Shown here: positions 40,361 through 62,183 of the stretch, one piece after another | Numbering within the stretch: the stretch's first letter is position 1 | Layout: each line of letters starts with the position of its first letter | Assembly (NCBI GenBank): GCA_963823665.1 | Contig: CAWGMQ010000010.1 | Location: forward strand, 256,001 to 320,000 | Source of the DNA: an uncultured Planctomycetota bacterium | GTDB lineage: Bacteria > Planctomycetota > Planctomycetia > Isosphaerales > Isosphaeraceae | Length of the DNA: 64,000 nucleotides | Reading direction: 5' to 3' | Program-made: the position numbers and the translations under genes | The notes under the pieces: model-generated | The model's database searches: none | What the model was told of the DNA's origin: nothing | Seen by the model: the letters and a program-made list of their open reading frames with translations, nothing else

Positions 40361-40390
40361 TTGCTTTTCGCTCGCTGCGAGGTGTACCAT
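40361..40390 (+). promoter_or_regulatory. Candidate sigma70 promoter for the leader and sugar-phosphate operon
   Basis: TTGCTT-18 bp-TACCAT about 55 nt upstream of the conserved leader. Confidence 0.45.
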
Positions 40391-40444
40391 GGCGACTGTA
40401 TTGTCGGGAGTCGACATGAGACAACCGACCCGCGGCTCCCGGAG

Positions 40445-40566
40445 ATGATCTGAATTTGTCGGATGACTGGACGAAGGGCAGCTCGGCAATCCCGGGTGGT
40501 CCGTCGAAAAGTAAGCCGGCGTGGTCGAGGACCTTGAGGGTTCTCGACCACGCCGGCTTTTTTTTT
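40445..40566 (+). ncRNA. Candidate cis-regulatory leader RNA (antiterminator/terminator), copy A
   Basis: Aligns without gaps to the reverse complement of 61971-62087 (18 mismatches in the first 80 nt by my count); upstream of the operon starting at 40707. Confidence 0.75.
40513..40566 (+). terminator. Intrinsic terminator inside leader A
   Basis: About 21-bp stem AAGCCGGCGTGGTCGAGGACC / GGTTCTCGACCACGCCGGCTT; its 3' end runs into a T9 tract (40558-40566). Confidence 0.85.
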
Positions 40567-40706: not shown

Positions 40707-41246
40707 ATGATGTCAGAAAAGAACTCGGTCGTCGCGATCTTCGAGTCGCACGGGCGGGCCGAAGACGCGATCCGCGAACTACAGCGAAGCGGCTTCGACA
40801 TGAAGAAGCTGTCGATCATCGGTAAGGATTACCACACGGAGGAGAACGTCGTCGGCTACTACACGACCGGCGAGCGCATGAAGTACTGGGGCAAGCTGGG
40901 AGCCTTCTGGGGCGGCTTCTGGGGGATTCTGTTCGGTTCAGCATTCTTCTGGCTGCCCGGCATCGGGACGGTGCTCGTGGCTGGTCCGCTCGTGGTCTGG
41001 ATCGTTGGCGCGCTCGAGAGCGCCGCGGTGATGGGCGGGCTCAGCGCCATGGGTGCCGCACTGTACAGCATCGGCATCCCGGAGGACAGTATCCTTCGAT
41101 ACGAAACACACGTGAAGAACGGCAAACTCCTCTTGCTCGTCCATGGGACGCCCGAGGAAGTGGAACGCGCCAAGAACCTCCTGGATCGGTCCGACGCAAA
41201 TTCAACGACGGTCCATGGCGAACAACTGGCCACCGCTGGCGCGTAA
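40707..41246 (+). CDS. General stress protein (YflT/DUF1269-like membrane protein)
   Basis: SVVAIF, LSIIGKDY, GAFWGGFWG, AGPL, ALYSIGIP; AAGGAGG RBS. Confidence 0.85.
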   Translation: MMSEKNSVVAIFESHGRAEDAIRELQRSGFDMKKLSIIGKDYHTEENVVGYYTTGERMKYWGKLGAFWGGFWGILFGSAFFWLPGIGTVLVAGPLVVWIVGALESAAVMGGLSAMGAALYSIGIPEDSILRYETHVKNGKLLLLVHGTPEEVERAKNLLDRSDANSTTVHGEQLATAGA

Positions 41247-41330
41247 CTCAAGGAAATCCGTGCAACACAAAGTTCCGGTCGGCCGCCGACCGGAACGTTA
41301 CACAGAAACATTCTCACGGGGAGGAACGAA

Positions 41331-42167
41331 GTGAGTTATGTAGAACGCTTCAGAGTGCCTCCCAGCACCACCGTCAAGCTTGCAGACATCGACCCGAGTT
41401 TCAAAAACCATCACGAGGGCCACAAGGAGGCGGCCAAGGAGATCGAGCACTACCGGCTGAGGCTGAGAGAACTGCAAGAGTTGCTCTATGCCGATGGACG
41501 GCGATCGCTCCTCATCTGCCTCCAAGCGCTCGACGCAGGGGGCAAGGACGGGACGATCGAACATATCCTGGGTTCGATGAATCCGCAAGGCTGCAAAGTG
41601 GTGGGGTTCAAGCAGCCTTCCGCCTTGGAGTGTGCGCATGATTTCCTGTGGCGAATCCATCGTGCCGTGCCTGCCCGTGGTGAAGTGGTCATCTTCAACC
41701 GTTCACATTACGAGGACGTCTTGATCGCTCGCGTTCATCACCTGGTCCCACATGAGATTTGGGCCCGCCGTTACGATCGAATCAATGCCTTCGAGAGTGG
41801 CCTCGTTGAGGACGGCACGGGCATTCTCAAGTTCTACCTCCATATCTCGAAACGCGAGCAACTGAAACGCTTCAAGGATCGGCTCGACGACCCTGCCAAG
41901 CAATGGAAGATCAGCGAGGCCGATTACAAGGAGCGAACCTGCTGGGGCGACTACACGGCGGCTTACGAAGATGCGCTCGCCCGTTGCAGCACCGAGCATG
42001 CCCCGTGGTTCATTATCCCTTCCGACCACAAGTGGTTCAGGAACCTCGCCGTGGCTCGGATCGTCGTGGAGCACCTGGAAGCGCTGAAGATGACATTCCC
42101 GCCTCCTTCGGTGGACATCGAGCACATTCGCAAGGAATATCACGCAGCGAAGAAGCATAGCCACTGA
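41331..42167 (+). CDS. ppk2: Polyphosphate kinase 2 family protein
   Basis: QALDAGGKDG, FKQPS, HDFLWR, FNRSHYEDV, APWFIIPSDHKW. Confidence 0.93.
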   Translation: MSYVERFRVPPSTTVKLADIDPSFKNHHEGHKEAAKEIEHYRLRLRELQELLYADGRRSLLICLQALDAGGKDGTIEHILGSMNPQGCKVVGFKQPSALECAHDFLWRIHRAVPARGEVVIFNRSHYEDVLIARVHHLVPHEIWARRYDRINAFESGLVEDGTGILKFYLHISKREQLKRFKDRLDDPAKQWKISEADYKERTCWGDYTAAYEDALARCSTEHAPWFIIPSDHKWFRNLAVARIVVEHLEALKMTFPPPSVDIEHIRKEYHAAKKHSH

Positions 42168-42235
42168 CCTGGAAGGCAGCGTTTCGAGAGAATGCGCCCG
42201 CGGCGGATTTGCGATGCTTGAAGCGGAGACACGAA

Positions 42236-43225
42236 ATGATCAGAGTGCCCATGTATCCGTTGCGATTCGAACCGATTTACCAGTATCGGCTCTGGGGCGG
42301 CCGGCGTTTGGCCTCGTTGCTGAAGGCGCCCCTCCCCGGCGACGGACCCATCGGCGAAGCCTGGCTGCTCTCCGACCGCGATGACCATCTCAGCACGGTC
42401 GCCGACGGACCGCTCAAAGGATCGACCATCCGGCAATTGATGGAGCAGTCGCCGGAGCAGTTGCTGGGAAATTTGGCGGGGCGATTCCGACGGTTCCCGG
42501 TGCTCCTCAAATTCCTCGACGCACACGACAAGCTCTCGGTTCAGGTGCATCCCCAGGATGAGCAGACCGACTATATCCCAGCCGGCGAGAGCGGCAAGAC
42601 CGAAGCATGGGTCGTGCTCGACGTGGCAAGGGACAGTTGTATCTACGCGGGCCTGAAGCGAGGCACCACTCAAGGTGATCTCGACCGAGCGCTCAAAAAC
42701 CGGGCGGTGGCGGACCTTCTGGCAGGCTTCACGCCGACGGTCGGCGACGCCGTCCTCGTCCGAGCTGGGACCGTTCACTCTCTCTCTGACGTGGTGGTTT
42801 TCGAAGTGCAGGAAAATAGCGACGTCACATTTCGCCTGTACGACTGGGATCGAACTGATCCCAAGACAGGCAAGCCTCGACCGTTGCAGGTCGAGCAGGC
42901 GGTTGCCTGCATCGATTTCGACCAGGTCGCGATAGGTCCGCTCAAGCCGGTGGTCGAGCAGGCGGCGCCGGTCCGGCGCGAGCGACTCTTTCAGTGTGAG
43001 CATTTCTCGGTGTGGCGGCACTCGGGACAGTCGCCGTTCACAGTCGGCGCGGCGAGCACGCCACGCGTGCTGGTTTGTCTCGCCGGCGAAGGGGAGCTCG
43101 AGCACGGCGGCGCCGATTATCCCCTCGGCCGCGGCGACGTCGTGCTCTTGCCGGCGGAGGTCGGCGCATGTTCCTGCCGGCCGCGCAATGCCGTCAGCCT
43201 GCTGGAGGTCGCGCTGCCGGAATAG
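42236..43225 (+). CDS. manA: Mannose-6-phosphate isomerase class I
   Basis: LWGG, IGEAW, FPVLLKFLDA..LSVQVHP, GKTEAW, GTVHSL, EVQENSDVTFRLYDW. Confidence 0.92.
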   Translation: MIRVPMYPLRFEPIYQYRLWGGRRLASLLKAPLPGDGPIGEAWLLSDRDDHLSTVADGPLKGSTIRQLMEQSPEQLLGNLAGRFRRFPVLLKFLDAHDKLSVQVHPQDEQTDYIPAGESGKTEAWVVLDVARDSCIYAGLKRGTTQGDLDRALKNRAVADLLAGFTPTVGDAVLVRAGTVHSLSDVVVFEVQENSDVTFRLYDWDRTDPKTGKPRPLQVEQAVACIDFDQVAIGPLKPVVEQAAPVRRERLFQCEHFSVWRHSGQSPFTVGAASTPRVLVCLAGEGELEHGGADYPLGRGDVVLLPAEVGACSCRPRNAVSLLEVALPE

Positions 43226-43243
43226 TTCCGCGCGGAGGGCACA

Positions 43244-43987
43244 ATGAAAAAGCTCGTGGTTTTCGACCTGGACGGAACCCTTGCCCAGAGCAAGTCATCG
43301 ATCGATGCCGAGATGGCAGCATTATTTGATAAGCTGCTCGTGATCATCAAAGTTTCTGTGATATCCGGTGGTAACTGGCCGCAATTTCAAAAACAGGTGC
43401 TTTCTCACCTTGCCAGTGACCAGCGATTGAAGAATCTTTCTCTCCTGCCTACTTGTGGAACACAGTTCTACAAATACGAAAGTGATTGGACTCGGATTTA
43501 CGCGGAGGATTTTACCCCTGAACAGAAAGAGAAGATTATCAGCTCACTCAAGAAAGCGATCGAGCAATCGGGCCTGAAGGCCGAAAAGGTCTGGGGCGAG
43601 GTGATCGAAGACCGGGGAAGTCAAATCACCTTTTCCGCGTTAGGTCAAGAAGCGCCGCTCGAAGAAAAGGTGAAATGGGACCCTGAGTTCGCCAAGCGGA
43701 AGAAGATGAAAGGTTTTCTTGACACGTTGATCCCGGAATTTGCAGTCCGCCTCGGTGGGTCGACGTCCATTGACGTCACGAAGCCGGGCATCGACAAAGC
43801 ATACGGGATCAGAAAGTTGCGAGACATTCTTGGCATTGCCATCGAAGAGATGATCTTTGTCGGCGATGCCTTGTTTCCCGGCGGCAACGACTATCCGGCC
43901 GAGCAAGCCGGTGTTGTTTCGATCCGGGTCAAGGATCCGCATGAGACGAAACGCGTTATCGAAACAATCATCGCTTGTCTGGGTTGA
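43244..43987 (+). CDS. HAD-IIB family hydrolase (phosphomannomutase-like)
   Basis: FDLDGTL, ISGG, IEDRGSQITFSALG, GGSTSIDV, GDALFPGGNDYP. Confidence 0.85.
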   Translation: MKKLVVFDLDGTLAQSKSSIDAEMAALFDKLLVIIKVSVISGGNWPQFQKQVLSHLASDQRLKNLSLLPTCGTQFYKYESDWTRIYAEDFTPEQKEKIISSLKKAIEQSGLKAEKVWGEVIEDRGSQITFSALGQEAPLEEKVKWDPEFAKRKKMKGFLDTLIPEFAVRLGGSTSIDVTKPGIDKAYGIRKLRDILGIAIEEMIFVGDALFPGGNDYPAEQAGVVSIRVKDPHETKRVIETIIACLG

Positions 43988-44020
43988 GTCCGGCCGAGCG
44001 AGACCTTGTGAGGGGAGCTA

Positions 44021-45211
44021 ATGGCAGGATTCCAAATGAAGCGACTCGGGATGCTGATGGAGCCCGAGCCGGGAAATGCCCTGGAGGTCGAAGGCGTCTT
44101 GAACCCGGCGGGGATTCGCGGCCCTGACGGTCAATTTTACCTTTTCCCTCGCCTGGTCGCGAAGGGGAATTTCTCGCGCATCGGCATCGCACGCGTGAAG
44201 TTCAATGAGGCCGGCGATCCGATGGGCGTTGAGCGCCTGGGCATCGCGCTCGAGCCCCAAACCGATTACGAGCTGCGGCCTGACGGCAGCGGAGGCTGTG
44301 AGGATCCGCGAATTACTTTTGGCGAAGACATCAAACGCTACGTCATGACTTACACGGCGCTTTCGCCCGAAGGCCCACGGATTGCCCTGGCCCTATCCGA
44401 GGACCTGTTCCACTGGCAGCGTTTGGGGCTGGCGACCTTCCGCCCGTATGAGGGCATCGAGTTCGACGGTGTGGACAACAAGGATGCCAGCATCTTCCCA
44501 GTGGCCATTCGCGATCCTGAAGGGAAGCCGGCAATGGCCATACTCCACAGGCCACTCTTTCCCGGAACTCGTCCTGAGGAAACGGTCTCTCAACCGGCGT
44601 CCCGCGCGGTTGATCCGCAGCGAGAGAGCATCTGGATTTCCTACTGTCCACTGGGCAGGGTTGACGATCTTCCGTATCACCTCAGCCATTTTACTCTGCA
44701 TAACCGGTTGGCCAGCCCGGTGGCGCCCTGGGAGCAGCTCAAGATCGGCGGCGGCACTCCTCCCGTCCTGACCCGGCACGGATGGATGGTTATCTACCAC
44801 GGCGTCCGCACACTGGCGGGCTCGACCACGGCAGCGCGCAAGTTATGTTACTCCGCCGGTGTGATGGTGCTCTCCAAAGAGCTTCCCCGTTTGATTCGTT
44901 ATCGCTCGCCTGAACCGGTGCTGACGCCGGAATTGCCGCAGGAATGCATCGGGACCGTTGCCCACGTCGTGTTTCCGACCGCCATCGACCGGCGCGATGA
45001 TCTCGGCCTGCCCGATCGATTCGACGTTTATTACGGGATGGCCGACAACCGGATCGGAGTGGCGCGTCTCGACGTGCCGAAGACCTTGCCCCCAGGGGGA
45101 CTCGCCGACCCGCCCCGAGCCAATCGCTCAATTCCCATCGATCGTCAATCCAAGACGGAGAGTCGCGAACGCGTCCCGGTCAACACTAAAGGAGGTTCCT
45201 CGCCAACATGA
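44021..45211 (+). CDS. GH130-like glycosidase / mannoside phosphorylase
   Basis: [44 protein letters not shown]. Confidence 0.85.
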
Positions 45212-47252
45212 CTTACTCAGCCACCATCGCTCCGCCGGAACTGGACGAGCTCTGTGTCAATACGCTGCGCTTCCTGGCGGTGGACGCCGTGCAGAAAGCC
45301 AAGTCCGGCCACCCCGGCCTGCCTCTGGGTTCCTCGGCGATGGCTTATGCACTCTGGGATCGCTTTCTCAAGTTCAACCCGTGTGATCCCATCTGGCCCG
45401 ACCGCGATCGCTTTGTTCTCTCGGCCGGCCATGGATGTGCGCTCTTGTACGCGCTGCTTCATGTCACGGGCTTCGATTTGCCGCTGGCGGAGCTCGAGAG
45501 GTTCCGCCAGTGGGGAAGCCGTACCCCAGGCCATCCGGAATATGGAAAGACGGAAGGCGTCGAGGCCACCACCGGTCCCTTGGGGCAAGGCCTGGCCAAC
45601 GCCGTCGGCATGGCCATCGCCGAGGTCGCTCTTGCAGCGCGCTTCAATCGACCTCGTCACCAAATCGTGGACCACTACACTTACGTTTTGGCCAGCGATG
45701 GCGATCTGGAGGAAGGGATATCTTCCGAGGCTGGATCAGAAGCCGGTCACCTGCGGCTTGGCAAGCTCATCGTCCTCTATGCCGACAACCACATCACGAT
45801 CGAGGGCAGCACGAAGCTCGCCTTTACCGAAGACCGTTCGGCCCGTTTCGCCGCGTTCGGCTGGCATGTCCAGCGGGTCGAAGCCAGCAACGACGTTGAC
45901 GCGATCGCTGCCGCGATCGAGGCTGCCAGGGAAGAGACGGGTCGGCCGTCCTTGATTCAGGTTCGCACCCACATCGGCTTCGGCAGCCCCCACAAGCAAG
46001 ACACCGCTGCGGCCCACGGCGAGCCACTCGGCCTGGAAGAAGTTCGTCTGACCAAAGAGGCGCTGGGCTGGCCGGTCGAACCTCCCTTCCATATTCCCGA
46101 GGAGGCCCTGGATCATTTCCGGGAAGCAGTCGCGCGGGGAGCACTGCGCACGCGGAATGGAAGTTACGTCTCGAACTTTATGCGGAGGAACACCCCGACC
46201 TCGCCGCAGAGTTCGAGCGGGTCACGCTTCGGCAACTTTCGAGCGGCTGGGATGCCGACCTCCCGACATTCACCTCAGGCGAAGGCCCAATGGCAACCCG
46301 CATCGCTTCGGGAAAGACGATCGCGGCTCTGGGCTCTCGTCTTCCCGAGTTGATGGGAGGCTCGGCCGATCTTGCTCCCAGCACCCATACGAACATGGAC
46401 GGGGCCGGCAGCTTCGAGCCTGAGACCCGATCGGGACGCAACATGCACTTCGGCATCCGGGAGCATGCCATGGGCGCCATTCTGAACGGTATGGCGCTCC
46501 ACCGCGGCCTCATCCCGTATGGAGCAACCTTCCTGATCTTCAGCGATTATATGCGTCCGCCGATGCGCTTAGCGGCCATGAACGGCCTGCCGGTGATCTA
46601 TGTCTTCACCCACGACAGCATCGCCATGGGAGAGGACGGCCCAACCCATCAGCCTGTCGAACATTTGCTGGGACTCAGATCCATCCCCGGCATGGTTGTC
46701 ATCCGGCCGGCCGATGCGAACGAGACGGTTGCCGCCTGGCGTGTCGCGATCGAGCACAGAGAAGGTCCGGTCGCCCTGGTGCTCACGCGCCAGGGACTCC
46801 CCGTGCTCGAAATTGCCCGATATCCGGGCGTACCCGCTGGAGTGCCCCTGGGTGGCTATGTCCTCGTGGACTCTCCTGCCAGTTGTTTACCCGATATCAT
46901 TCTGATTGCGACCGGTTCCGAAGTGCATCTCGCGCTCGAGAGCCGTGAACGGTTGGCGACCGAGGGCGTCCAGGCCAGGGTGGTGAGTCTGCCGAGCACC
47001 AACCTCTTCTCGATGCAGTCGGAGAAATATCGGAACAAGGTCTTGCCCCCGGGCGTGCCCCTCTTGGCCATCGAGGCCGGTGCGTCCCTCGGCTGGAAAT
47101 CCTATGTCGGTCCCCAGATCGCCGTGATCGGCGTGGACACCTTCGGGGCATCAGCCCCCGGGCCAGTCGTGATGCAGCATTATGGCTTCACAGTCGAGAA
47201 TGTCTGCAACCAAACCCATAACTTGCTCGGCCAAGTCAAGGAGAAACGGTGA
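45208..47252 (+). CDS. tkt: Transketolase, frameshifted near 46140
   Basis: [58 protein letters not shown]. Confidence 0.95.
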
Positions 47253-47698
47253 TGCGCGTGGGAATTGCCGCGGACCATGGAGGGTTTGCTCTCAAGGTAG
47301 AGATGGCTGAGGCCCTTCGGACCGCCGGGCATGAAGTCGTCGATTTCGGCGCACGCATCCTGACTTCGGGGGATGACTACCCCGATTACGTTGTACCCCT
47401 GGCTCTGTCGGTGGCAGAGGAGAAAGTCGAACGTGGCGTGGCCTTTTGCGGGAGTGGCGTGGGAGCGTCCGTCGCCGCCAACAAGGTGCCCGGCGTTCGT
47501 GCCGGTCTGATCCACGACGTTTACTCGGCGCACCAGGGAGTCGAAGACGACAACATGAACATGCTTTGCATGGGTGGACGGGTAATCGGCCCGGCGCTGG
47601 CGTGGGAACTCGTCCAGGCGTTCGTGGCCGCCCGCTTCAGCGGAGCCGAACGCCACCAGCGCCGTTTGGCGAAGGTGGCGGCCCTGGAGAACGACTGA
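47252..47698 (+). CDS. rpiB: Ribose-5-phosphate isomerase B
   Basis: ADHGG, DYPD, CGSGVG, ANKVPGVRA, RHQRR. Confidence 0.93.
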   Translation: MRVGIAADHGGFALKVEMAEALRTAGHEVVDFGARILTSGDDYPDYVVPLALSVAEEKVERGVAFCGSGVGASVAANKVPGVRAGLIHDVYSAHQGVEDDNMNMLCMGGRVIGPALAWELVQAFVAARFSGAERHQRRLAKVAALEND

Positions 47699-48064: not shown

Positions 48065-48439
48065 TCAGCGCTTGGCTTGGTGGCAAGGGGGTGGCTCGGC
48101 CAGCGTCACGACAACAAACGCTTCGCCGGTTACCGTGCTGATGTCGTGGTGCAGACTGACCACCTTGACGTCGGTGACATCCTGGACCATCGCTTGTATG
48201 AGCGGCTTCGCCGTTTCGATCAGTTGGGTCCGTATTTGCTTGAGCAAATCCCTCCCCCTATCGGATGGGAATTTGGCAAGGTGCTGTTCGGCGGGTGTCA
48301 ACATGCCCTGAAGCCGGACGACGATGAAATCCCCGAGCAGGAAGGCGCGAATGTTTTTGGGGCCTCGGCCCCTGTATTCCTGCTCAAAGCGACTCATCAC
48401 GTCGCAGATGGCGGCCTCGATTTCTCCTTGGGTTTTCAT
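48065..48439 (-). CDS. DUF2294 (MpsC-like) protein
   Basis: KTQGEIEAAI, GRGP, LTPAEQHL, GRDLLKQIR, SLHHDISTVTGE; ATGA-overlaps the kinase stop. Confidence 0.92.
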   Translation of the reverse strand: MKTQGEIEAAICDVMSRFEQEYRGRGPKNIRAFLLGDFIVVRLQGMLTPAEQHLAKFPSDRGRDLLKQIRTQLIETAKPLIQAMVQDVTDVKVVSLHHDISTVTGEAFVVVTLAEPPPCHQAKR

Positions 48440-50406
48440 CGTGCCGGCAACTCCGAGACGGTCGCCAAGATTTGCAGCACCTTCCCGAAATCGCCCGGCT
48501 TGACCAGGTGGTGATCGAACCCCGCATCGAACGAACGCTGAAGGTCGCTCACCCCTCCGTACCCGGTCATGGCGACAAGCACAGCATTCTGGAGAGCGGG
48601 CTGCTGACGTATCTGCTTCGCGACCTCAAAGCCATTGAGCCCCGGCAAGCCGATGTCGAGCAGCACCACGTTCGGCCGGTAATCGAGGGCCGCTTCCAGG
48701 ACGGCTGAGCCGTCGTAAGCCATCCTGACATCGTGGCCGGATTCATTCACCAGCAATGCCAGGGTCGTCACGGTATCCACGTTGTCATCCACAACCAGCA
48801 CGCGCAAGGATTGTCCGCTCGATTGGGCCGACTGGGGAGACGGCGATGCCGGCTGCTGCTGGGGAGGTGACACCACCGGCAGACGCACGACGAACTCGCT
48901 GCCTTGCCCCAAAACGCTAGTTGCCGCCACCGTTCCACCGTGCATTTCCACGAGGCGCTGCACCAAAGCCAGTCCGATGCCCAACCCACCTTGCGAGCGG
49001 TCCAGGGACCGTTCCCCCTGGGTGAACAGGTCGAAGATGCGGGGCAGTGTTTCGGGGGCGATGCCGACGCCCGTATCCCGCACACGCAGCACCGCCTCCG
49101 TGCCCTCTTGTTGCAACGTCAACCAAACGTGACCGCCTCGCTCCGTGTACTTGGCGGCATTGGTCAGCAGGTTCACCATCACTTGTTCCAACCGGGCAGC
49201 GTCGGCGTTTAGCCAGATCGCTTGCGCGGGCAGCGACACGGTGAGTTCATGCTTGCGCAGGTCGATCAGCGACCGGACGGTCGCAACCGCGTGTTCCACG
49301 ACGACGCCCACGGCAATCGGTTCTTGATGAAGCTGAATCCTTCCGGTGGTAATGCGAGAGACTTCGAGTAGTTCATCAACGATCTGCGTCAGTTGTCCGA
49401 CCTGACGCTCAATGATGCTGGCGGATTGCTGAAGTATTGGGTTCTCGATACCGTGCAGTCGATTCCGATTGCTGTGCAGGCGCAGGAGAAGAGCGGCATT
49501 GAGGATGGGGGCAAGGGGGTTGCGAAGTTCATGGCTGAGCATCGCCAGGAACTCATCTTTGCGGCGGTCCAGGTCGGCGAGTGCCGCTGCCTGCTCCTGG
49601 GTCAGTCGCTGCAAGCGTCTGCGTTCGGTGATGTCGCGGATGTTGCATTGAACGACCTGGTGTTGGTTCTCCGCATAGACGTTGCTGACGAACTCGACCT
49701 CGACGTTTTGGCCACTTCTGTTCTCGAGGGGCAGGTTTTCATAGCGGACGTAGCCCGTCTTTTGCAGTTCCCGGTAGGCGGCCTGGCTCTCTTCGATATG
49801 GCGGAACAGACCGATCTCCCAGAGTTCCTTGCCCAGGAACTCATCGTGCGAGAAGCCCAGCAAGGTCGTCATGAACGGGTTGGCGTCGATCACCTTACCC
49901 GTGAGTGCGTCGAGGATGAGGATGCCGTCCTTGGCCATCTGGAACAGCCGCCGATACCGGACTTCGGAGTGCGCCATGGCGGCGTCCGTCTGCCGGCGAG
50001 CAGTAACGTCCTCGATGGCTAGAAGGACCAATTCCGGCTCGTTGCTCTCCGGCGGGAACCTGCGGGCGTTAAGCAGCATTGTCCTTTGCCCGAGAGTCGG
50101 GAAGGTGTGTTCAACCTCGACGTCTTCAATGGGATGGCTGTTGGAAAGAACTTGGGGCAGCAACGTCCGCAGTTGGGGGATGTCCCACTGACCGTTGCCC
50201 AGGTCATAGACGAAGCGGCCCTCCGTGTCCTCTTTCGAGGCATGGAAATCCCGGTAGAACGCGCCGTTGGCGGTGCGTACCCGCAGGCTCTTGTCGAGAA
50301 CCACGAACGGCTCTCTCAGGGTCGCGATGATGTTTTCAGCGTACGCAAGGGCGAGCTGCAGTTCTGTTGTGCGCTTGTCAACGTTCGTTTCCATGCCGTT
50401 TCCCAT
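48436..50406 (-). CDS. PAS-PAS hybrid histidine kinase / receiver
   Basis: FLAMLSHELRNPL, NLLTNAAKY, DTGVGI, GLGIGL, VLVVDD, LDIGLP. Confidence 0.93.
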   Translation of the reverse strand: MGNGMETNVDKRTTELQLALAYAENIIATLREPFVVLDKSLRVRTANGAFYRDFHASKEDTEGRFVYDLGNGQWDIPQLRTLLPQVLSNSHPIEDVEVEHTFPTLGQRTMLLNARRFPPESNEPELVLLAIEDVTARRQTDAAMAHSEVRYRRLFQMAKDGILILDALTGKVIDANPFMTTLLGFSHDEFLGKELWEIGLFRHIEESQAAYRELQKTGYVRYENLPLENRSGQNVEVEFVSNVYAENQHQVVQCNIRDITERRRLQRLTQEQAAALADLDRRKDEFLAMLSHELRNPLAPILNAALLLRLHSNRNRLHGIENPILQQSASIIERQVGQLTQIVDELLEVSRITTGRIQLHQEPIAVGVVVEHAVATVRSLIDLRKHELTVSLPAQAIWLNADAARLEQVMVNLLTNAAKYTERGGHVWLTLQQEGTEAVLRVRDTGVGIAPETLPRIFDLFTQGERSLDRSQGGLGIGLALVQRLVEMHGGTVAATSVLGQGSEFVVRLPVVSPPQQQPASPSPQSAQSSGQSLRVLVVDDNVDTVTTLALLVNESGHDVRMAYDGSAVLEAALDYRPNVVLLDIGLPGLNGFEVAKQIRQQPALQNAVLVAMTGYGGVSDLQRSFDAGFDHHLVKPGDFGKVLQILATVSELPAR

Positions 50407-50562
50407 CTCCTGCCGTTTTCGGAGCTTAGCCCTTCGATCTAAAGGCTGTAACCAGAAAGTACATCTTATCGGGGGATCGGATGTGCCTCAACTAACGCCG
50501 ATCCTATGCCCGCCTGGACGTCTTTGACCAAGGCGGATCCTTCGGTTGGGGAAGGTGAGGAT

Positions 50563-51102
50563 TCAAGATGTCGGCGGCTCGTAGACATTGATGTGGTCCG
50601 GCCCTTGGGCGGCTAGCAGGCTGTGCGCGCGGGCCACGACCTCCGGAATGGACCGGACGATTACGAGAAACTTGCCCCCCTTGACGTGATTCTCGTAGTT
50701 GATCGCCCGGTCCTTCGGAACACCCCAGCCTACGAGCGCGCCCGCGAGGGTGCCCAGCGCGGTTCCCGCCAGCGCCCCTTCGATGCCCGCCAAGAGCGCC
50801 GCCGCGAGTGGACCGGCGACCCCGACGAGGCCCAGTCCCGGCAAGACCAGGAATCCCGCTCCAACGCACAGGCCGAACAGCCCCCCGAACAAGGACCCGC
50901 TTTCCGCCCCGGCCGTGACATAGTCGCCGCGGCTGACGAAGCCGCATGGCACCTCGGTCACCTGAGAGCCGCGGCCCACGATCGAGAGATCGTCGAGCGC
51001 GAACCCACCTACGTGGAGCTGCCGCACCGCGCGCTCGGCGGAAGCATGGTCGGGATAAACCGCCACGACGCTGGAAACAATCGCAGTTACCGCCTGGCTC
51101 AT
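50563..51102 (-). CDS. General stress protein, paralog family of 40707..41246
   Basis: SVVAVY, LSIVGR, GGLFG, AGPL, ALVGWGVP, YENHVKGGK. Confidence 0.85.
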   Translation of the reverse strand: MSQAVTAIVSSVVAVYPDHASAERAVRQLHVGGFALDDLSIVGRGSQVTEVPCGFVSRGDYVTAGAESGSLFGGLFGLCVGAGFLVLPGLGLVGVAGPLAAALLAGIEGALAGTALGTLAGALVGWGVPKDRAINYENHVKGGKFLVIVRSIPEVVARAHSLLAAQGPDHINVYEPPTS

Positions 51103-51151
51103 GATCGATTCCTTTTGTCGGGATTACTGCCCGGTTGGACGCCAGTGAAAG

Positions 51152-52633
51152 TCAGTTGGTTTCAGGGATCTCCTTCGCTTCCGTGACGGGACCGCCTTGA
51201 GTGAGGATCGACAGGTTTCCCAGGATCATCTGCTCCGTGCCGTCGATCGGCGTCCAGGGTTCATCGCCGCTGGACGCCGCGTCGGAGCCTGAGCCGCGGC
51301 GATTGGTGACCTCGATCCACTCGCCGTCGCTGACCCCGGTCTCTACTTCGATCCGTTTCGCATAGCCGTTCTCGCAGATCCAGCAGAACGACCTCTCCCC
51401 GACCTGCAATATGGTCTTGTCGCCGAGGTGCATGAGCGCCGAAACCGGCAGAGCCCACACGCCGGGCCGCTCGATTGTCACTTTGGCGTAAGCGTACATC
51501 CCTGGAAGGAGCTGGCTGCCTGGGTTGGTCAGGTCGATCTCGGCGCGGAGAGTGCGGCTCTCGATGTCGAGCGCCCATGCCGTTCGCGTGACGGTGCCGG
51601 GAATCGGCTGGTCGCGGAACGCCCTGATGAGCACGGTGGCCTTGGAGCCAACGTGGACGTAATTCGCGTAATGCTCCGGGATGTCGACGAAGATGCGGAC
51701 GATGTCCGTGCGGTCGACCACATAGATCGGCGCGGCGGAGCCACCGGGCGAGAGGTAGGGACCGCGGCGATTGGCCGAGGGGTCGCCCGTGCTGGGCAGG
51801 ACGAAATCGAAGGTATTGGCATTACGGGCCACGATGACGCCGTCATAGGGCGCGGGAAGTACGAGGTAATCCACCCAGGCCTGGAGCCGCTTCTCTTCGC
51901 TCTGGGCGAATTTCAGGTCGGCTTCGGCGACACCGACGTCCACGTTGGCCTCGGATAGCGCGGCCCGCTCGGAAAGCAGTTCGGCGCCGGCCTTCAGGAC
52001 CGTTGCGGCCGCCGCGTCCCGGGACGCGACGGACGCCTTCCAACGATTCGTGGTCTGGAGGACATCCTGGGGATTGACCACGCCCCGCTTGAGCTCCTTG
52101 TCCAGCCGCTTGGTCTCCGAGTCCCAGCGCTCGGCCTCGGCCCGATAGCCGGCGTGTTCCGCCCGGGCTTCCTCAAGCCGCGCCTGGGCCGCCTCGACGT
52201 CGGCCTTGGCCACTTTCACGGCCGCCTTGGCCAGCTCGATCTGCTCCAGGTCGAGCGCGACTATCGCCTTCTTCGTAGCGTGGTCCTCAACCAGCTCGGG
52301 CGCGAAGAGGTTGGCGAGCACATCGCCTTTCTTAACCTTGTCGCCGATGTCTACGATCCAATTCAGGATGTAAGCGTTCATTTTCGGATAGACCGACGAG
52401 CGCTCGTAGCTCTGCGTGAAGCTGGGCTGCCCGATGACCCGGACGATATCCCGGACCTGCGGCTGGACCAGCCGCACTGTCGGGGGTCTGCCCACACTCG
52501 TATAGTGGGACTCCGCCTTGTGGTGGCACCCCGACGGCACCAGGACGGCCAGAAGACCGAACGGGAGCTGGAACACCAGGCGGCGGCAGTGCACCAGGCT
52601 ATCCGAACGGGCGGAGAACGTGAATCGGCGCAT
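51152..52633 (-). CDS. RND efflux periplasmic adaptor (MFP) 2
   Basis: Lipobox-like SGC, VDIGDKVKKGD, coiled coil, APYDGVI, SRTLRAEIDL, LLPGMY. Confidence 0.9.
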   Translation of the reverse strand: MRRFTFSARSDSLVHCRRLVFQLPFGLLAVLVPSGCHHKAESHYTSVGRPPTVRLVQPQVRDIVRVIGQPSFTQSYERSSVYPKMNAYILNWIVDIGDKVKKGDVLANLFAPELVEDHATKKAIVALDLEQIELAKAAVKVAKADVEAAQARLEEARAEHAGYRAEAERWDSETKRLDKELKRGVVNPQDVLQTTNRWKASVASRDAAAATVLKAGAELLSERAALSEANVDVGVAEADLKFAQSEEKRLQAWVDYLVLPAPYDGVIVARNANTFDFVLPSTGDPSANRRGPYLSPGGSAAPIYVVDRTDIVRIFVDIPEHYANYVHVGSKATVLIRAFRDQPIPGTVTRTAWALDIESRTLRAEIDLTNPGSQLLPGMYAYAKVTIERPGVWALPVSALMHLGDKTILQVGERSFCWICENGYAKRIEVETGVSDGEWIEVTNRRGSGSDAASSGDEPWTPIDGTEQMILGNLSILTQGGPVTEAKEIPETN

Positions 52634-52646
52634 CACTGGCCCCCCA

Positions 52647-54197
52647 TCAAGGTAGGCGCCTCGCCAGGCGCGAAGTGTCAGGAAGTCGGGGATCGCCCGG
52701 GGACAGTCGTGTGCCTGGATCATGATCCGGCGCGGGCGCCTCGATCGCGATTTTCGTCGCCACCGTCGCGGCGGTGATCTCAACGGCGCCGCCCTCGGTG
52801 AGCGCTGACAAATCGCCGAGGATCACCTGTTCCTTGCCGTCGATCTGCGCCCAGGCAACCGAGTCGCGGGGCGCCTCCCGTGGGACCGGGGGCCGGCGAT
52901 TGCTGATCTCGACCCATTTGTCGTCGCTGACGCCCGTCTCGACTTCAGTCCGCACTGCCTTGCCGTTTTCGTAGAGCCAGCAGAAGGTCTGGTCGCCGTT
53001 ATGAACGAGTGCCGAAAGCGGCAGCGCCTGGACGTCCGGACGCTCAATGATCACCTTGACGTAGGCGTACATCCCGGGCAGGAGCTGGCCTTCAGGGTTG
53101 CTAAGGTCGACCTCGGCGCGGAGCGTTCGGCTCTTCATGTTCAGCGCCCAGGACGTGCGCGTGACGGTGGCCGGCAACTCGGTGTCGCGGAAGTCCCGGG
53201 CAAGCACGCTCGCCTTTGTCCCGATTTTTACGAAGTTGGCGTCTCGTTCCGGGATGTCGAGAAAGATCCGGACGATGTCGAGTCGCTCGACCACGTAGAT
53301 CGGCGCGGCCGTGCCGCTGGGCGAAAGGTTGGGGGAGAGGTAGTAGGCCGTGGGATCGCCTGTAGTGGGTTGGACAAAGTCGAAAGTGTTGGCGTTGCGG
53401 GCTGAGATCACGCCGGTGAAAGGGGCATTTAGCGTGAGATAGTCCACCCAGGCTTTCGCATATCTCTCTTCGCTGTCGGCCACCTTCAGAGTGGCTACCG
53501 CGACCCTGACGGCGACCTGCGTCTTTTCGAGCTTGGCCCGCGCGCTGAGCAATTCCGCCTTCGCCCTCTTGATGGTCGCTTTCGCCTTGTCCAGCGCAGA
53601 GATGCTCGATTTGAGTTGATTGGTCGACTCGAAGAGGATCAAGGGATGGATCACGTGCAGGGCGACCTGTCGAGCCAGCCGATCGACCTCCGTTTGCCAG
53701 CGGTCGACCTCGGCATTGTACTTATTGAGGATCGCCTCGGCCGCTGCAAGGCGCGCCTCGGCCGCGTCGACGTTGGCCCGGGCCACCTCGACCATCTCTT
53801 TGGCCAGCGATATCCGTTCTCGGTCGAGCACGACGGCTGCCTTCTTCGTTCCGAGCTCCTCGACTAGCTCGGGCGCGAACAGGGTGGCAACCACGTCGCT
53901 TTTCTTTACCTTGTCGCCGATGTCGACGATCCACTTCGTTATGTAGGCTGTCGGCTTGGGATAGATCGACGTGCGCTCGTAGCTCTCGATGAAGCTGGGC
54001 TGGCCCACGACCCGCACGATGTTCCGAGACTGCGGCTGGATCAGCCGCACGCTCGGCGGCTTCGTGTTGCCTTCGAATTCGATCTTGTGTTCGCTACGGC
54101 AGCCAGACGCCGCCAGGGTGACAATGAGCCAGGGCACCAGCCGACGGCGGCCGGCGGCCCGATCCGAAATCGCGGGCGAGAGAATCCGGCGCATCAA
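52647..54197 (-). CDS. RND efflux periplasmic adaptor (MFP) 1
   Basis: ASGC, VDIGDKVKK, APFTGVI, SRTLRAEVDL, LLPGMY. Confidence 0.9.
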   Translation of the reverse strand: MMRRILSPAISDRAAGRRRLVPWLIVTLAASGCRSEHKIEFEGNTKPPSVRLIQPQSRNIVRVVGQPSFIESYERTSIYPKPTAYITKWIVDIGDKVKKSDVVATLFAPELVEELGTKKAAVVLDRERISLAKEMVEVARANVDAAEARLAAAEAILNKYNAEVDRWQTEVDRLARQVALHVIHPLILFESTNQLKSSISALDKAKATIKRAKAELLSARAKLEKTQVAVRVAVATLKVADSEERYAKAWVDYLTLNAPFTGVISARNANTFDFVQPTTGDPTAYYLSPNLSPSGTAAPIYVVERLDIVRIFLDIPERDANFVKIGTKASVLARDFRDTELPATVTRTSWALNMKSRTLRAEVDLSNPEGQLLPGMYAYVKVIIERPDVQALPLSALVHNGDQTFCWLYENGKAVRTEVETGVSDDKWVEISNRRPPVPREAPRDSVAWAQIDGKEQVILGDLSALTEGGAVEITAATVATKIAIEAPAPDHDPGTRLSPGDPRLPDTSRLARRLP

Positions 54198-57100
54198 GGA
54201 CCTCCGGGTGAGAAAAGTGCGGGCCCCGGCGAATGTCCGCCATCAGGGGACCGGCGGTGTTCGTCCGTTTGCGGCTGAGACAAGGCCGAATCGGCAGCGT
54301 CTTCATCGTCAGACATGCTCTGGCCGGCGGCGGCAGGCGGGACGAAGTGCTCGCTGTCGGGATCGTCCGGATGAATCGACGACGAGACGGCCTTCTTCTT
54401 GCCGATCACGATCGCAAAGATTGACGGGACGATGAGCAAGGTGGCCACCGTCGACATCACCAGCCCGCCGATCACCGCGCGGCCGAGCGGGGCCTGCATC
54501 TGGCTCCCGCGCTCCAAGGCCAGCGCCATCGGCACCATGCCGGTGGTCATCGCGCAGGCCGTCATCAGGATCGGCCGCATACGCTCGCTGGCACCGAGCA
54601 CCGCCGCCTGCGCTGACCGGTTTCCGGCCTTCCAGTGATCGTTGGTGAAAGCAACGAGCATGACCGAGTTCGAGACCGAGACGCCCAGGCTCATGATCGA
54701 GCCCATGAACGACTCGATGTTCAGAGATGTGTTGGTCACATAGAGGATGATCGCGATGCCGGCCAAGACACCCGGCACGGCGCTGATCGATATCAGGGCC
54801 AGGCGCAGCGACTGGAAATAGGCGGTCAAGAGCACGAGGATCACGAACACAGCGACCCCCAGCCCGATCCCGAGCGACTCGAACATCTCGTCCATCGGCG
54901 GCAGCTGGCCCATGGTCTCGACCCGCACGCCGCGGGGCGGATCACCGACGGCGGCGAGCGCCTGGGCGACCTGCCGTGACGCCCGGCCCATGTCCTCGCC
55001 CTCGACATTCGCCGTCAGCGTCAGGTAGCGCTGTGACATGTCGCGGTCGATCTCGCCGGGCCGCACGCCCCTCTCGACCGTGGCCACGTCACGGATCATC
55101 AGATTGACCAGCGGGTTGATCGATTCCAGCGGCAACGTCTCGATGCCTTCTGGCTTGTCGATCCGCAACGGCGGTATCTGGAGCTGCACCAGGTAGTCGA
55201 AACCCGTCTTCTCGTCGATCCAGTAGTTGAGCGAGGCGAAGCGGGTCGACGCCGTCGCCATGACGATGGCATGGGCCACGTCGGAGACCTTGGCTCCGGA
55301 GAGCCCCGCCTTTTCGCGGTCGATGGTGACCTCGACGGTCGGGTAGTCGAGCGACTGCACGAACTCGACGTCGCGGAGGAACGGGATGCGCCTCATGTTG
55401 GTCGCGATCTTTTCTGCGTGCTGCCGCACCAGCTTCAGATCGGTGCCGACGATCCGGACCGCGATCGGCGTCAGCGAGCCGAAGCTCATGACCTTGGTGA
55501 CCATATCGCCCGGTTCGAAACCGAAGGTCGACAGCGCCGCTTGCTTTTCCGCCTCCTCCTTGGCCAGGCCACCCTGCTCCAGCCGCTTGGCCAGCCATGG
55601 AATCACCCGCTTGGGCAGGACCTTGCGCAGGCGCTCGCGGAACTCGTCGAGCTTGATCCCGCTGTCCTCCGTGAGCGCGATCCGCAACTGGCCGTCGTCG
55701 GGCCCGCGCATGAACAAGACCATGTTGTCGATGCCGAAGTTTGTAGCGACCTGGCCGACGTAGCCCATCGTGATCTTCATATGCTCGGGCGTTGCCTCGC
55801 GCTCGATCTCCTCCAAGCACTTGATCGCCATCTGGCGCGTCAACTCGAAGTTCGAGCCGGGCGGCGGCCGGAACCGCAGCACGAATTCCCCCGAATCGAT
55901 CTGCGGGAACAGCTCGGTGCCAACCTGCAACCCGACCAGCCAGAGGATCAGGCCGCACGCCCCGAGATATCCCGGCACCACAAGCCAGCGCAGGCGAACG
56001 AGCCAGGTCACAACTTTGGTATAAGCATCGAGAAACCGATCGAACAGCCCGCGCTTTTTGCCATGCCCCTTGTTCTTGACCATGTGCACGCACAGGATCG
56101 GTACCAACATGATCGTGAGCAGATACGCCGAGATCATGGCGAACCCAACCGCCAGTGTCAGTGGCATGAACAGCGACCGGAGCGGGTCTTTCATGATCAG
56201 CGCCGGTGTGAATACGGACAGGATGCATAACAGTGCCAGCAGGATCGGCACGGCCGTGGCGTTGGCCGCGCCCAGCACCGCCCTGGCAATCTTGGGCGTT
56301 TGCCCCATCTGCACATGCAAGTTCTCGATGTTTACCGTCGACATATCGACGAGGATGCCGATCGACAGCGCCATGCCGCCCAGCGACATGATGTTGATCG
56401 TGTTGCCCGTCAGCCAGAGTCCGACGAACGACCCCATGAGCGCCAGCGGGATGGTGGCCACGACGACGAGCATGCTCCTCAAGTCGCCGAGGAACAGGAA
56501 GATCATGAGTCCGGTCAAGCCCGCGCCAATCAAACCTTCTGTAGCGACGCTCTCGACGGCCGCCACCACGGCGGGCGACTCGTCGAACTCGAAGTTGATC
56601 GAGACGTCCTTGGGGACCGCGTCGCGGAACATCTTCATCGACTTGTGGACGTCGGCCACGACGGTCAACGTCGATCCAGTGTCTTTCTTGATGACCGGCA
56701 GGTAGACCGCGTTCTTGCCGTTGACGAGCGCGTATCCATACGTGATATCGACATAGTCCTGGATAGTCGCCACGTCGCGGAGGTAGACGTTCCTCTCCAT
56801 CCGGAGCGGAATATCGCCCAGCTTCTGGATGTCGCCCACCGTCGCGTTATTGGCGACCATCGGCATCGAGTCGTGGATGTAGACGTTCCCCGCGGGGATG
56901 ACGGTATTCCCAGTCGCCAGGGCATCAATGACCTGCTGCGGCGTCAGGTTGTAGTCCAGGAGCTTGTGCGGGTCGACGTTGACGACGATCGACCGCATGT
57001 TCGGGCCGAACGGCGAGATCGCCACCGTGCCGGGGACGTTCTTTTGCACCAGCGGCCGGATGACGTTATTGGCCAGGTCCCCCATCGCCCCCAGCGAGGT

Positions 57101-57541
57101 GACGTCGCTCTCGAACACCAGGTAGCCGACCGGGACGGAGCCTGAGTCCATCCGCATGATCATCGGCGGCAAGGTCCCCTTGGGCATCCACGACATCGCC
57201 CGGTCGGACATCGCCACGACCTGGGCCATCGCCTGGCCCATGTCGGTCCCGGGGAAGAACGAGAGCTCGCACAAGGCCACCTGCTGGATGTTCCGCGTAT
57301 TGATATCCTTGATGCCATCGACGTACTGGAAATACAACTCGAGCTCATTGACGATGAAGCCCTCCATCTGGTCGGGGCTCATGCCGATGTAATCGAGGAA
57401 GACGTAAATCTTCGGGACGTTCAGCGAGGGGAAGATATCCACCCGCATCCTGGTGAAGCCCAGAAGGCCACCGCTGATCAGGGCCACGACCAGCATCATG
57501 ATCGTGATCGGGCGCCGCATCGCGAATGAAGTCGGGTTCAT
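54194..57541 (-). CDS. RND efflux permease, copy B
   Basis: VDIFP, TINIMSLGG, GILVDMSTVNIEN, LFMPL, RMRPILMT, PLGRAVIGGL. Confidence 0.93.
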   Translation of the reverse strand: MNPTSFAMRRPITIMMLVVALISGGLLGFTRMRVDIFPSLNVPKIYVFLDYIGMSPDQMEGFIVNELELYFQYVDGIKDINTRNIQQVALCELSFFPGTDMGQAMAQVVAMSDRAMSWMPKGTLPPMIMRMDSGSVPVGYLVFESDVTSLGAMGDLANNVIRPLVQKNVPGTVAISPFGPNMRSIVVNVDPHKLLDYNLTPQQVIDALATGNTVIPAGNVYIHDSMPMVANNATVGDIQKLGDIPLRMERNVYLRDVATIQDYVDITYGYALVNGKNAVYLPVIKKDTGSTLTVVADVHKSMKMFRDAVPKDVSINFEFDESPAVVAAVESVATEGLIGAGLTGLMIFLFLGDLRSMLVVVATIPLALMGSFVGLWLTGNTINIMSLGGMALSIGILVDMSTVNIENLHVQMGQTPKIARAVLGAANATAVPILLALLCILSVFTPALIMKDPLRSLFMPLTLAVGFAMISAYLLTIMLVPILCVHMVKNKGHGKKRGLFDRFLDAYTKVVTWLVRLRWLVVPGYLGACGLILWLVGLQVGTELFPQIDSGEFVLRFRPPPGSNFELTRQMAIKCLEEIEREATPEHMKITMGYVGQVATNFGIDNMVLFMRGPDDGQLRIALTEDSGIKLDEFRERLRKVLPKRVIPWLAKRLEQGGLAKEEAEKQAALSTFGFEPGDMVTKVMSFGSLTPIAVRIVGTDLKLVRQHAEKIATNMRRIPFLRDVEFVQSLDYPTVEVTIDREKAGLSGAKVSDVAHAIVMATASTRFASLNYWIDEKTGFDYLVQLQIPPLRIDKPEGIETLPLESINPLVNLMIRDVATVERGVRPGEIDRDMSQRYLTLTANVEGEDMGRASRQVAQALAAVGDPPRGVRVETMGQLPPMDEMFESLGIGLGVAVFVILVLLTAYFQSLRLALISISAVPGVLAGIAIILYVTNTSLNIESFMGSIMSLGVSVSNSVMLVAFTNDHWKAGNRSAQAAVLGASERMRPILMTACAMTTGMVPMALALERGSQMQAPLGRAVIGGLVMSTVATLLIVPSIFAIVIGKKKAVSSSIHPDDPDSEHFVPPAAAGQSMSDDEDAADSALSQPQTDEHRRSPDGGHSPGPALFSPGGP

Positions 57542-60500: not shown

Positions 60501-60853
60501 CACGACATCGCCCGGTCGGACATCGCCACGACCTGGGCCATTGCCTGGCCCATGTCGGTCCCGGGGAAGAACGAGAGCTCGCACAGGGCCACCTGCTGAA
60601 TGTTCCGTGTATTGATATCCTTGATGCCATCAACGTACTGGAAATACAACTCGAGCTCATTGACGATGAAGCCCTCCATCTGGTCGGGGCTCATGCCGAT
60701 GTAATCGAGGAAGACGTAAATCTTCGGGACGTTCAGCGACGGGAAGATATCCACACGCATCCGGTTGAGGCCCAGAAGGCCGCCGCTGATCAGGGCCACG
60801 ACCAGCATCAGGGTCGTGACTGGGCGCCTCATGGCGAAGCCGGTCGGATTCAC
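57538..60853 (-). CDS. RND efflux permease, copy A, frameshifted near 59585
   Basis: Paralog of copy B; GILVDEATVTIEN; split over ORFs 58814..60889 and 57538..59565. Confidence 0.9.
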
Positions 60854-60888
60854 AGTCCACACTCCCTGTCTGCTGCGCGACCGCGGCA

Positions 60889-61926
60889 TTATTCTTCAGG
60901 ACGGCTCGGTCCTTCGTCTGTCGGGTTGCCTGCTTTGCTCCCGCCCCTCGAGGAGGTGGGCGCGGCGGACCCGGCTAGAGGGGTGAGACCGGGGATCCGA
61001 TCGCCATTCGAGTGAGCTTGCGCCGCGTCGAGGCGCTCCCGCAGAGTCTTGAGCTCCTCCTTGAGGGCCTCCAGTTGATTGTCGAACTGTCGGTGTGCCG
61101 CCGGCAGCGCGGCGACTTCAGCCATCGCATGAGTCAGCTCGCTCAGCTTTATCTGCATTTTTCGCAGCGCCGGCGGCGTCGCGTCGGTGGGCAGTGTTAC
61201 ACCGTCCACTCGCTCGCGCAAGTGGTCGACCCGGCGCGACAGGTCCGTGATTAGCTGCTTGAGCATATCCGCGTCTTTGGCCGGCGAGACGCCGGGAATC
61301 GAGTTCTTGGTCGATGCCTGCGCGTTCGATCCCTTGCCCGACTCCTTACTTTCCGCACTGCCGGACTTCTTTTCAGGGCCCGAATCCTTCGTCGAGCCCG
61401 AATCGCTCTTGCCCTGCGACTCTTTCGACTTGGGTCCCGCGGACTTCGGCCCGAAAAAGTACGAGTAGCCCATCGCGCCGATCACACCGCAGGCCAAGGC
61501 GACGCCAGCCGTGATCAGAAGATTCTTCATCATCGAAGGCTGCTGTTGCCGAGATCCGTCTTCGCGAAGGTGTTCTTGATCCTGCACTCGATCTGCGTCA
61601 TGCTGGCGAGCCTGCTGACCGCCTCGATTCTTACTGTGGCCGTTCTGGTCCTGAGGGCGGTCTTGAGAATTGCCCTGTTCCTTGTGAGCGAAGACCGTCC
61701 GGACTCCCGTGGCGCCGAGCAGGTCCGACTCGCTCACCTGGGTCGTCTCGACGCTGATGGTGGCGTCCGGGTTAAGCTTCCGGTCTGACGGGTGCTCGAC
61801 CACCTTGTCAATAACCGGATCAGCGGTGTCGATGGTGATCGGCGCTGGGTCCTCGTCAGGAAGCTTGCCCGCCTGTGAGTGCTCGTCAACCCGGTGGGAT
61901 TCGTCGGTCGAATTGGATTTGTCCAT
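60889..61926 (-). CDS. Hypothetical single-TM protein with coiled coil; first gene after leader B
   Basis: GAGGGA RBS before MDKSNS; TM LLITAGVALACGVIGAMGYSYF; heptad C-terminal region. Confidence 0.7.
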   Translation of the reverse strand: MDKSNSTDESHRVDEHSQAGKLPDEDPAPITIDTADPVIDKVVEHPSDRKLNPDATISVETTQVSESDLLGATGVRTVFAHKEQGNSQDRPQDQNGHSKNRGGQQARQHDADRVQDQEHLREDGSRQQQPSMMKNLLITAGVALACGVIGAMGYSYFFGPKSAGPKSKESQGKSDSGSTKDSGPEKKSGSAESKESGKGSNAQASTKNSIPGVSPAKDADMLKQLITDLSRRVDHLRERVDGVTLPTDATPPALRKMQIKLSELTHAMAEVAALPAAHRQFDNQLEALKEELKTLRERLDAAQAHSNGDRIPGLTPLAGSAAPTSSRGGSKAGNPTDEGPSRPEE

Positions 61927-61970: not shown

Positions 61971-62087
61971 AAAAAACCGGCGTGGCGGAACACCCTGAGG
62001 TATTCGACCACGCCGGCTTACTCGTCAACGGGCCCCCCGGCAAAGCCGGAGTGCCCTTTATCTAGTCGTCCGACGAAATCAGCTCAT
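61971..62087 (-). ncRNA. Candidate cis-regulatory leader RNA (antiterminator/terminator), copy B
   Basis: Homologous to 40445-40566; stem CCGGCGTGG../..CCACGCCGG followed by T6GT3; ends 45 nt before the start codon at 61926. Confidence 0.75.
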
Positions 62088-62157
62088 GTCTTGGTGGGAT
62101 CTGCCTGCTCGCTCGCGCAGGCTATCCATTCGGTCTCCATTGTCCTATTTGGAGCGT

Positions 62158-62183
62158 AAATAGCAAGGCCATTGTTGCTATTT
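62158..62183. promoter_or_regulatory. Perfect inverted repeat AAATAGCAA-N8-TTGCTATTT overlapping a candidate minus-strand -35 box
   Basis: Seen directly; on the minus strand TTGCTA-16 bp-GACAAT precedes leader B. Confidence 0.5.

Follow-up and report, generated by a model that had tools for sequence, protein, structure and literature searches.

The element present twice in the window (the whole 64,000-nucleotide stretch of DNA that was analysed) is a real, uncatalogued and phylum-wide terminator-switch RNA, and very probably a transcription attenuator. Our best reading of the leader, to which we give a probability of about 60%, is antitermination dependent on MpsC/DUF2294 (PF10057); in the choice between a riboswitch and a protein-dependent switch, gene context favours the protein.

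A sequence-only reading had placed one copy at 40445..40566 (+) and a second at 61971-62087 (-), and both sets of coordinates were reproduced, as were the 18 mismatches and absence of gaps in the first 80 nt when the alignment was recomputed, and the GC-rich hairpin plus U-tract at the 3' end of both copies (in copy 1 a 20-bp stem, 40515-40557). The interrupted stem drawn in that reading is also the fold that RNAfold gave for both 5' parts taken alone, at -29.2 kcal/mol (z -2.9; 2/200 shuffles folding equally well) for copy 1 and -34.3 kcal/mol (z -3.5; 1/200 shuffles) for copy 2. In the full-length copies the 20-bp terminator is predicted to take the CCGGC strand from the base of the 5' stem, in agreement with the proposal that the two folds exclude each other. 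The leader starts ahead of the flagged 5' end, as a promoter-like sequence and an additional short hairpin (P0) lie 40-100 nt upstream; for copy 1 we infer a transcription start near 40397, and a strict sigma70 scanner made no call at the promoter-like site of this copy. The P0 hairpin varies between copies and shows no sequence conservation. Candidate leader peptides, short AUG-N-stop frames, occur in both window copies and are missing from most other copies. The features of the two leaders and their operons are as follows.

40361..40390, plus strand: promoter-like site of copy 1 (TTGCTT, 18 nt, TACCAT), from sequence, the motif recurring in homologs
40405..40441, plus strand: variable 5' hairpin (P0) of the copy 1 leader, from sequence and RNAfold
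40458..40520, plus strand: predicted antiterminator hairpin of copy 1 (GUCGG/CCGGC base, AUG/AAG internal loop, ACU/AGU, upper stem), from folding, covariation and the top match of model R2 (see below)
40515..40566, plus strand: intrinsic terminator of copy 1 (stem 40515-40557, U-tract 40558-40566), from prediction and covariation; its first 6 nt double as the 3' base of the antiterminator hairpin
40707..47698, plus strand: operon behind copy 1, from ORFs and Pfam, the operon inferred from spacing
48065..48439, minus strand: MpsC/DUF2294 gene of type a, candidate trans-acting factor (Pfam PF10057, E 1.2e-35)
48436..61926, minus strand: remainder of the copy 2 operon, from ORFs and Pfam
61971..62017, minus strand: intrinsic terminator and U-tract of copy 2, from sequence and folding
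62012..62074, minus strand: predicted antiterminator hairpin of copy 2, from folding and an R2 match
62097..62127, minus strand: variable 5' hairpin (P0) of the copy 2 leader, from RNAfold
62139..62166, minus strand: promoter-like site of copy 2 (TTGCTA, 16 nt, GACAAT), from sequence and motif statistics

The earlier failure to recognise an Rfam family was borne out with Rfam 15, which gave no match at the gathering threshold in the window; around copy 1, seven matches at E<=10 all lay far under their cut-offs, the one with the best E-value (24.1 bits against a cut-off of 90) covering the terminator alone, and a search of the sister leaders described below, in 20 loci, found no Rfam 15 family. 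Literature searches turned up no account of this RNA and, for 'DUF2294', returned nothing relevant; neither the main texts of Brewer 2021 and Narunsky 2024 (PMC8632094, PMC11109978) nor one supplement of PMC8632094 mentions Planctomyc, DUF2294 or bicarbonate.

The description 'present twice' holds for the window but not for the genome, which has 26 copies. BLAST of the source genome gave 20 distinct copies, which were used to build a covariance model (R1); this model returned 26 full-length sense matches at >=59 bits, including the 20 training copies, the other 21 rows being antisense matches to terminators. Of the 26, 13 are located in a 65-kb island (C10:2,424,713-2,489,111), and four are inside the window or adjacent to it; two stand just beyond its right end (G000:C10:320432-320552 and 320930-321050). 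Besides its 13 leaders, the island (G000:C10:2423000-2490000; L031-L034) carries five MpsC genes and PAS kinases, together with CsbD, DUF1328-like, DUF3309, HPr, desaturase and ice-binding-like genes, and relatives carry similar islands. At E<1e-10, R1 matched at least 38 of 100 genomes of the same family (with three further weak matches), and it matched at least 5 of 150 genomes sampled across Planctomycetota. A pattern scan of GTDB gave at least 125 loci; among the 125 matches listed, 116 are from Planctomycetota (Isosphaeraceae, Gemmataceae, Pirellulales, Tepidisphaeraceae, Phycisphaerae), four real ones belong to two bins, labelled 'delta proteobacterium' and Bryobacteraceae, and five are chance. 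The matches in Massilia, Zoogloea (two), Myxococcota and Arthrobacter were rejected as chance, having neither a model match nor MpsC. Relatives account for only small shares of the sequencing runs examined. RNA contigs of relatives cover leader homologs, one joining a leader to a yflT-like gene, and such contigs reveal neither ends nor levels.

Each window copy had been described as lying 5' of a co-oriented operon, and the homologs follow the same polarity: they lie 5' of co-oriented genes (among the 20 genome copies, one, L019, has no recognisable gene), and the promoter motif TTGCNN-16-18-NANNAT precedes 110 of 186 elements, mostly at the same distance, compared with 12/186 in the opposite-strand control. 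After the motif come the variable hairpin and then a conserved rod of ~63 nt, consisting of GUCGG, a loop AYG, ACU, an irregular upper stem, AGU, a loop AAG and CCGRC, with the core GG-NNG-AY ... RU-ANR-CC at the base of the hairpin. In alignment A4 (105 full-length sense rows used; 27 antisense or partial rows left out) the strongest covarying column pairs are in the apical stem and the terminator. When the 20 copies from the genome are aligned, pairing holds in 96% of cells, a level that none of 500 shuffles reached, and double changes occur at 8 of 21 pairs, seven of them in the upper stem. Covariation of the 5' stem, on which the first proposal had been made to depend, is thus found in its upper part (and in the terminator) but not in the basal GUCGG/CCGRC helix, which is nearly invariant, so that support for this helix consists of conservation and folding. 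In a metagenome scan with the basal helix left unconstrained, 119/120 matches had G-C at both inner pairs, and variation at the two pairs after these was almost solely by wobble; the basal loop positions A66 and G67 were variable in the set that left both free. A U-tract followed the terminator in 110 of 113 elements of the metagenome set. On folding, the probability of the basal helix exceeded 0.5 in 175 of 179 truncated leaders versus 1 of 179 at full length. The exclusive folds, co-oriented genes, promoter motif and covariation of upper stem and terminator together argue, at the level of sequence, for the proposed regulated leader.

By Pfam, the copy 1 operon encodes a YflT-domain protein, PPK2, phosphomannose isomerase, phosphomannomutase, GH130, transketolase and RpiB. 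Type-a mpsC (48065..48439) is the last gene of the copy 2 operon, directly behind a gene for a PAS histidine kinase-receiver protein; the other genes of this operon encode an unknown membrane protein, an AcrB-type RND protein and a second RND protein, two membrane-fusion proteins, a YflT-domain protein and the PAS kinase-receiver hybrid. Very similar PAS kinase-receiver genes abut type-a mpsC twice (window 48065-50406 (-) and G000:C10:2453270-2455633), an adjacency hinting at kinase input to MpsC. The RND region (window 54194-60889 (-)) consists of tandem near-identical AcrB-type genes followed by the two membrane-fusion proteins, with no outer-membrane factor recognised there. The first AcrB-type gene (57538-60889 (-)) and the transketolase gene (45208-47252 (+)) are each split into two reading frames, through assembly indels or as real pseudogenes. 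Divergent from the copy 2 promoter, a Gly/Tyr-rich low-complexity ORF with a repeated C-terminal segment (window 62230-63354 (+)) has no Pfam match.

The first genes behind 187 elements (Pfam scan of 71 representatives, many without a Pfam match) include YflT, DUF3309, CsbD, transglycosylase-associated (GlsB-like), BON, SPFH, HPr, ferritin-like, Hsp20, KaiC-like, STAS, DksA-like and ice-binding proteins and kinases, a set characteristic of general stress regulons. By far the commonest first gene is MpsC/DUF2294 of type b (39/187 elements), which also stands first in 29 of 104 elements of an independent metagenome set; short motif searches over 29 loci with type-b mpsC placed csrA after it in 10 and type-a mpsC divergently upstream in 18. 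One protein (P0030) has both MpsC and CsrA domains and looks like read-through of neighbouring mpsC-csrA genes and not a true fusion.

Among the 100 family genomes, 36 have both the element and PF10057, two the element alone, five MpsC alone and 57 neither, in a count made over genomes related to each other and partly built in, because the leader stands in front of type-b mpsC too and the genes occur in common islands. Of the two element-only family genomes, G071 and G091, one is 54% complete and the other in 1,220 contigs, and a PF10057 match was lacking in a total of five element-bearing genomes (G071, G091, G169, G264 and G265), all incomplete or fragmented. CsrA is present in 100/100 family genomes; at 3-18 CsrA-like genes per genome in all 100, the family shows an unusual expansion.

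Stronger evidence for the link to MpsC lies in genomes that have type-a mpsC alone and no R1 match, yet carry sister leaders beside mpsC. These leaders (GGCAGAU...AUAGGCC followed by a terminator) adjoin mpsC and stand ahead of genes that encode PEP carboxykinase or a bicarbonate transporter of SbtA type. Related leaders next to mpsC were found in other planctomycetes, Bacillota and one more phylum. In Anoxybacillus amylolyticus the sister leader separates the DUF2294 gene from that of the bicarbonate permease, and the one in Acetoanaerobium noterae separates mpsC from an MFS transporter gene. Less than 800 nt from 29 mpsC genes there were 63 terminators, nine of which carried a strict form of the core, versus 0 of 259 control terminators (340 kb); this strict core was defined after six of its nine matches were known, and one match is an R1 member. 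A second model, R2, was built from 10 sister leaders with their terminators removed and with no member of the window element family; over the 64-kb window it ranked the window copies first and second (23.2 and 22.0 bits; next 11.7), and over 100 kb it placed all 13 island copies within its top 14 matches, a success that is partly by design, as the sisters were picked by the shared core.

A held-out test of R2 used 10 further mpsC loci, taken from the phylum to which G264 belongs (four of them kin of one training locus), together with a 60-kb control. The 12 top-scoring matches were spread over eight of the 10 mpsC loci, and the best control match reached 10.9 bits. All 12 ran straight into a terminator, as did a weaker match in a ninth locus, the terminator check covering only matches in mpsC loci. 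Behind the held-out matches lie genes for Usp, for DUF4914 and for proteins without annotation, and repeatedly another mpsC gene, which means that the targets of sister leaders are not all CO2 genes. On 18 other mpsC loci, including Staphylococcus and two Bacillus loci, R2 found nothing significant (best E 0.25), a result that speaks against generality; several of these loci have a terminator starting with AGGCC or AAGCC behind mpsC, in two cases ahead of isocitrate dehydrogenase. Viral contigs yielded no MpsC relative.

The staphylococcal system is one of the closest known. According to Fan 2019 (PMC6689103), deletion of mpsC in S. aureus gave no phenotype and left its function unassigned, and the mpsA transcript drops under 5% CO2; MpsC of mpsABC belongs to the same Pfam family as the window MpsC and its gene adjoins a bicarbonate transporter. 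The staphylococcal mpsA leader has a terminator, but no clear core was recognised in this leader, nor did R2 give a significant match there.

We know of no RNA-binding role for MpsC. In a shallow alignment, type-a MpsC has invariant basic residues at R25, R42, R64, K68 and R71, and both types were modelled as alpha-beta-beta-alpha-alpha-beta-beta, an order resembling that of type II KH domains. Fold searches with the models gave best Z scores of 6.8-6.9 to unrelated proteins and none at Z>=8 or E<=0.001; RbfA scored Z 5.0-6.0 (at Z 6.0, rmsd 3.8 over 88 aligned), tied with unrelated folds, and Era and KhpB fell within the noise range (Z 4.6-5.2). A HutP fold for MpsC, also considered, found no support: a PDB sequence search, four fold searches (in which no HutP chain appeared) and the ESM Atlas gave no usable match. 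The predicted complex of type-a and type-b MpsC scored 0.01, which says nothing for or against pairing.

Among the alternatives, a new ligand-sensing ON riboswitch, in which a metabolite, ion or second messenger would bind the internal loops and stabilise the hairpin while mpsC is merely regulated or co-inherited, is unlikely, though less so than the others. Many loop nucleotides are near-invariant across the phylum, the terminator-coupled architecture and coherent gene sets would suit such a switch, five element-bearing genomes have no detectable mpsC, and c-di-GMP riboswitches offer a precedent for multi-copy regulons. On the other hand, the element is a single rod with neither junction nor pseudoknot, its basal loop tolerates changes, the sister leaders have only the minimal core in common, and the position of type-a mpsC upstream of or divergent from the leader, and not under it, would go unexplained. 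There is also a slim chance that read-through depends on something else, be it a NusG paralog, the ribosome, temperature or an sRNA acting in trans, or that the short terminated RNA is the product: the effector proposed here is a candidate from gene context, and a promoter for each copy means that ~170-nt RNAs would accumulate, but the link to mpsC across phyla would be left without explanation and no leader peptide is conserved.

Attenuation by CsrA, a paralog of which would bind the GGA of CGGAYGAC, block the antiterminator base and promote termination, appears improbable. The GGA is nearly invariant and sits in a small loop of the terminated fold, one copy heads a csrA gene (L017), and csrA follows type-b mpsC in the loci noted above; against this, CsrA is ubiquitous in the family while the element is in 38 genomes, most sister leaders have GGCAG or GGUCG and no GGA, and the element context UCGGA (YCGGA) departs from the consensus CsrA site, ANGGA in a hairpin loop, although the specificity of planctomycete CsrA may differ. 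CsrA could still act as a second input to the leader. Least credible is a mobile or repetitive, MITE/REP-like DNA element spreading within genomes. The 26 copies, their clustering in islands and their patchy occurrence in relatives are what such an element would give, yet the order promoter, hairpin, terminator and gene is strand-polar, copies remain ~75-80% alike after divergence with compensatory changes, terminal inverted repeats were not seen, and the gene associations are conserved across classes.

Antitermination by MpsC would have close functional counterparts. Protein-bound RAT elements, the targets of BglG, SacY and LicT, are rods with small internal loops that overlap a terminator; the element is likewise an irregular hairpin with internal loops whose 3' base overlaps an intrinsic terminator, and in both the known and the proposed system protein binding would lead to read-through, with the regulator gene nearby and partly under its own leader. 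They differ in that the RAT is ~30 nt compared with the ~63-nt element hairpin, and in that the element targets stress and CO2-related genes at up to 26 sites per genome. CAT-RBD and PRD Pfam domains were absent from the window genes and the first downstream genes, the window MpsC having PF10057 only. ANTAR proteins (EutV, AmiR, NasT) and HutP share with the proposed system a multi-site regulon, control after initiation, nearby kinases and a small RNA-binding regulator; the ANTAR substrate is defined by twin hairpins with hexaloops, whereas the element consensus is one long hairpin. Terminator-coupled ON riboswitches resemble the element in a conserved 5' domain and a basal helix competing with the terminator, and differ from it in that the element has no junction, pseudoknot or Rfam family at threshold. 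By analogy, the element appears to work like a BglG/LicT RAT or an ANTAR regulon, but judged by the shape of the RNA and by the linked protein it seems to belong to neither. The Rhodopirellula-1 motif of Weinberg 2010 (PMC2864571; not in Rfam) is also a multi-copy Planctomycetes hairpin proposed to be cis-regulatory; identity with the element was rejected by visual comparison with part of its alignment, which is AAC...GUU and integron attC-like, with no common core and no terminator.

For MpsC-dependent antitermination we envisage the following course. A sigma70-type promoter, visible as a motif, would start a leader of ~170 nt, and the nascent RNA is predicted, with partial covariation support, to form first the long irregular hairpin with the core at its base. 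Because the 3' arm of the terminator repeats the GUCGG strand, this arm, once made, is predicted to displace the hairpin base, and strand exchange toward termination would be the expected default. Active MpsC would bind the basal internal loop, keep the hairpin and permit read-through, the likeliest effector being the type-a paralog, encoded beside the leader and usually outside its control; type-b mpsC, lying within the regulon, may provide feedback. The 26 leaders would then form a general-stress regulon that includes type-b mpsC and often csrA, and candidate signals are CO2/bicarbonate for the sister leaders and kinase signalling for the window regulon.

More tentatively, and as a possibility rather than an expectation, the widespread MpsC/DUF2294 family may represent a new class of RNA-binding antiterminator, ancestrally coupling CO2/bicarbonate status to PEP carboxykinase, SbtA and genes related to these through an RNA core shared in several phyla, and expanded in soil planctomycetes, as the type-a/type-b pair, into a general stress regulon operated by read-through at dozens of terminators and not by an alternative sigma factor. 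If so, an orphan protein family would gain a testable function with a named RNA target, the control of general-stress genes in a major soil phylum would be described, and heterotrophs would have a candidate system for gene control in response to CO2/bicarbonate; if a small molecule switches the RNA instead, it would constitute a new and abundant riboswitch class.

Some further arrangements were seen around mpsC genes. On a Bacillus badius plasmid (L370:2483-3652) a gene of a distant DUF2294 subfamily, where the core was not found, lies immediately before fdhD, and on an Anoxybacillus plasmid (L362:6850-6980) a second long hairpin with a terminator, which does not match the core, lies immediately upstream of the DUF2294 gene. 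At four loci (L404, L406, L407 and L366) sister leaders or terminators starting with AGGCC precede members of a large-protein family whose first 223-260 residues have no Pfam match, and at L406 two leaders stand in tandem.
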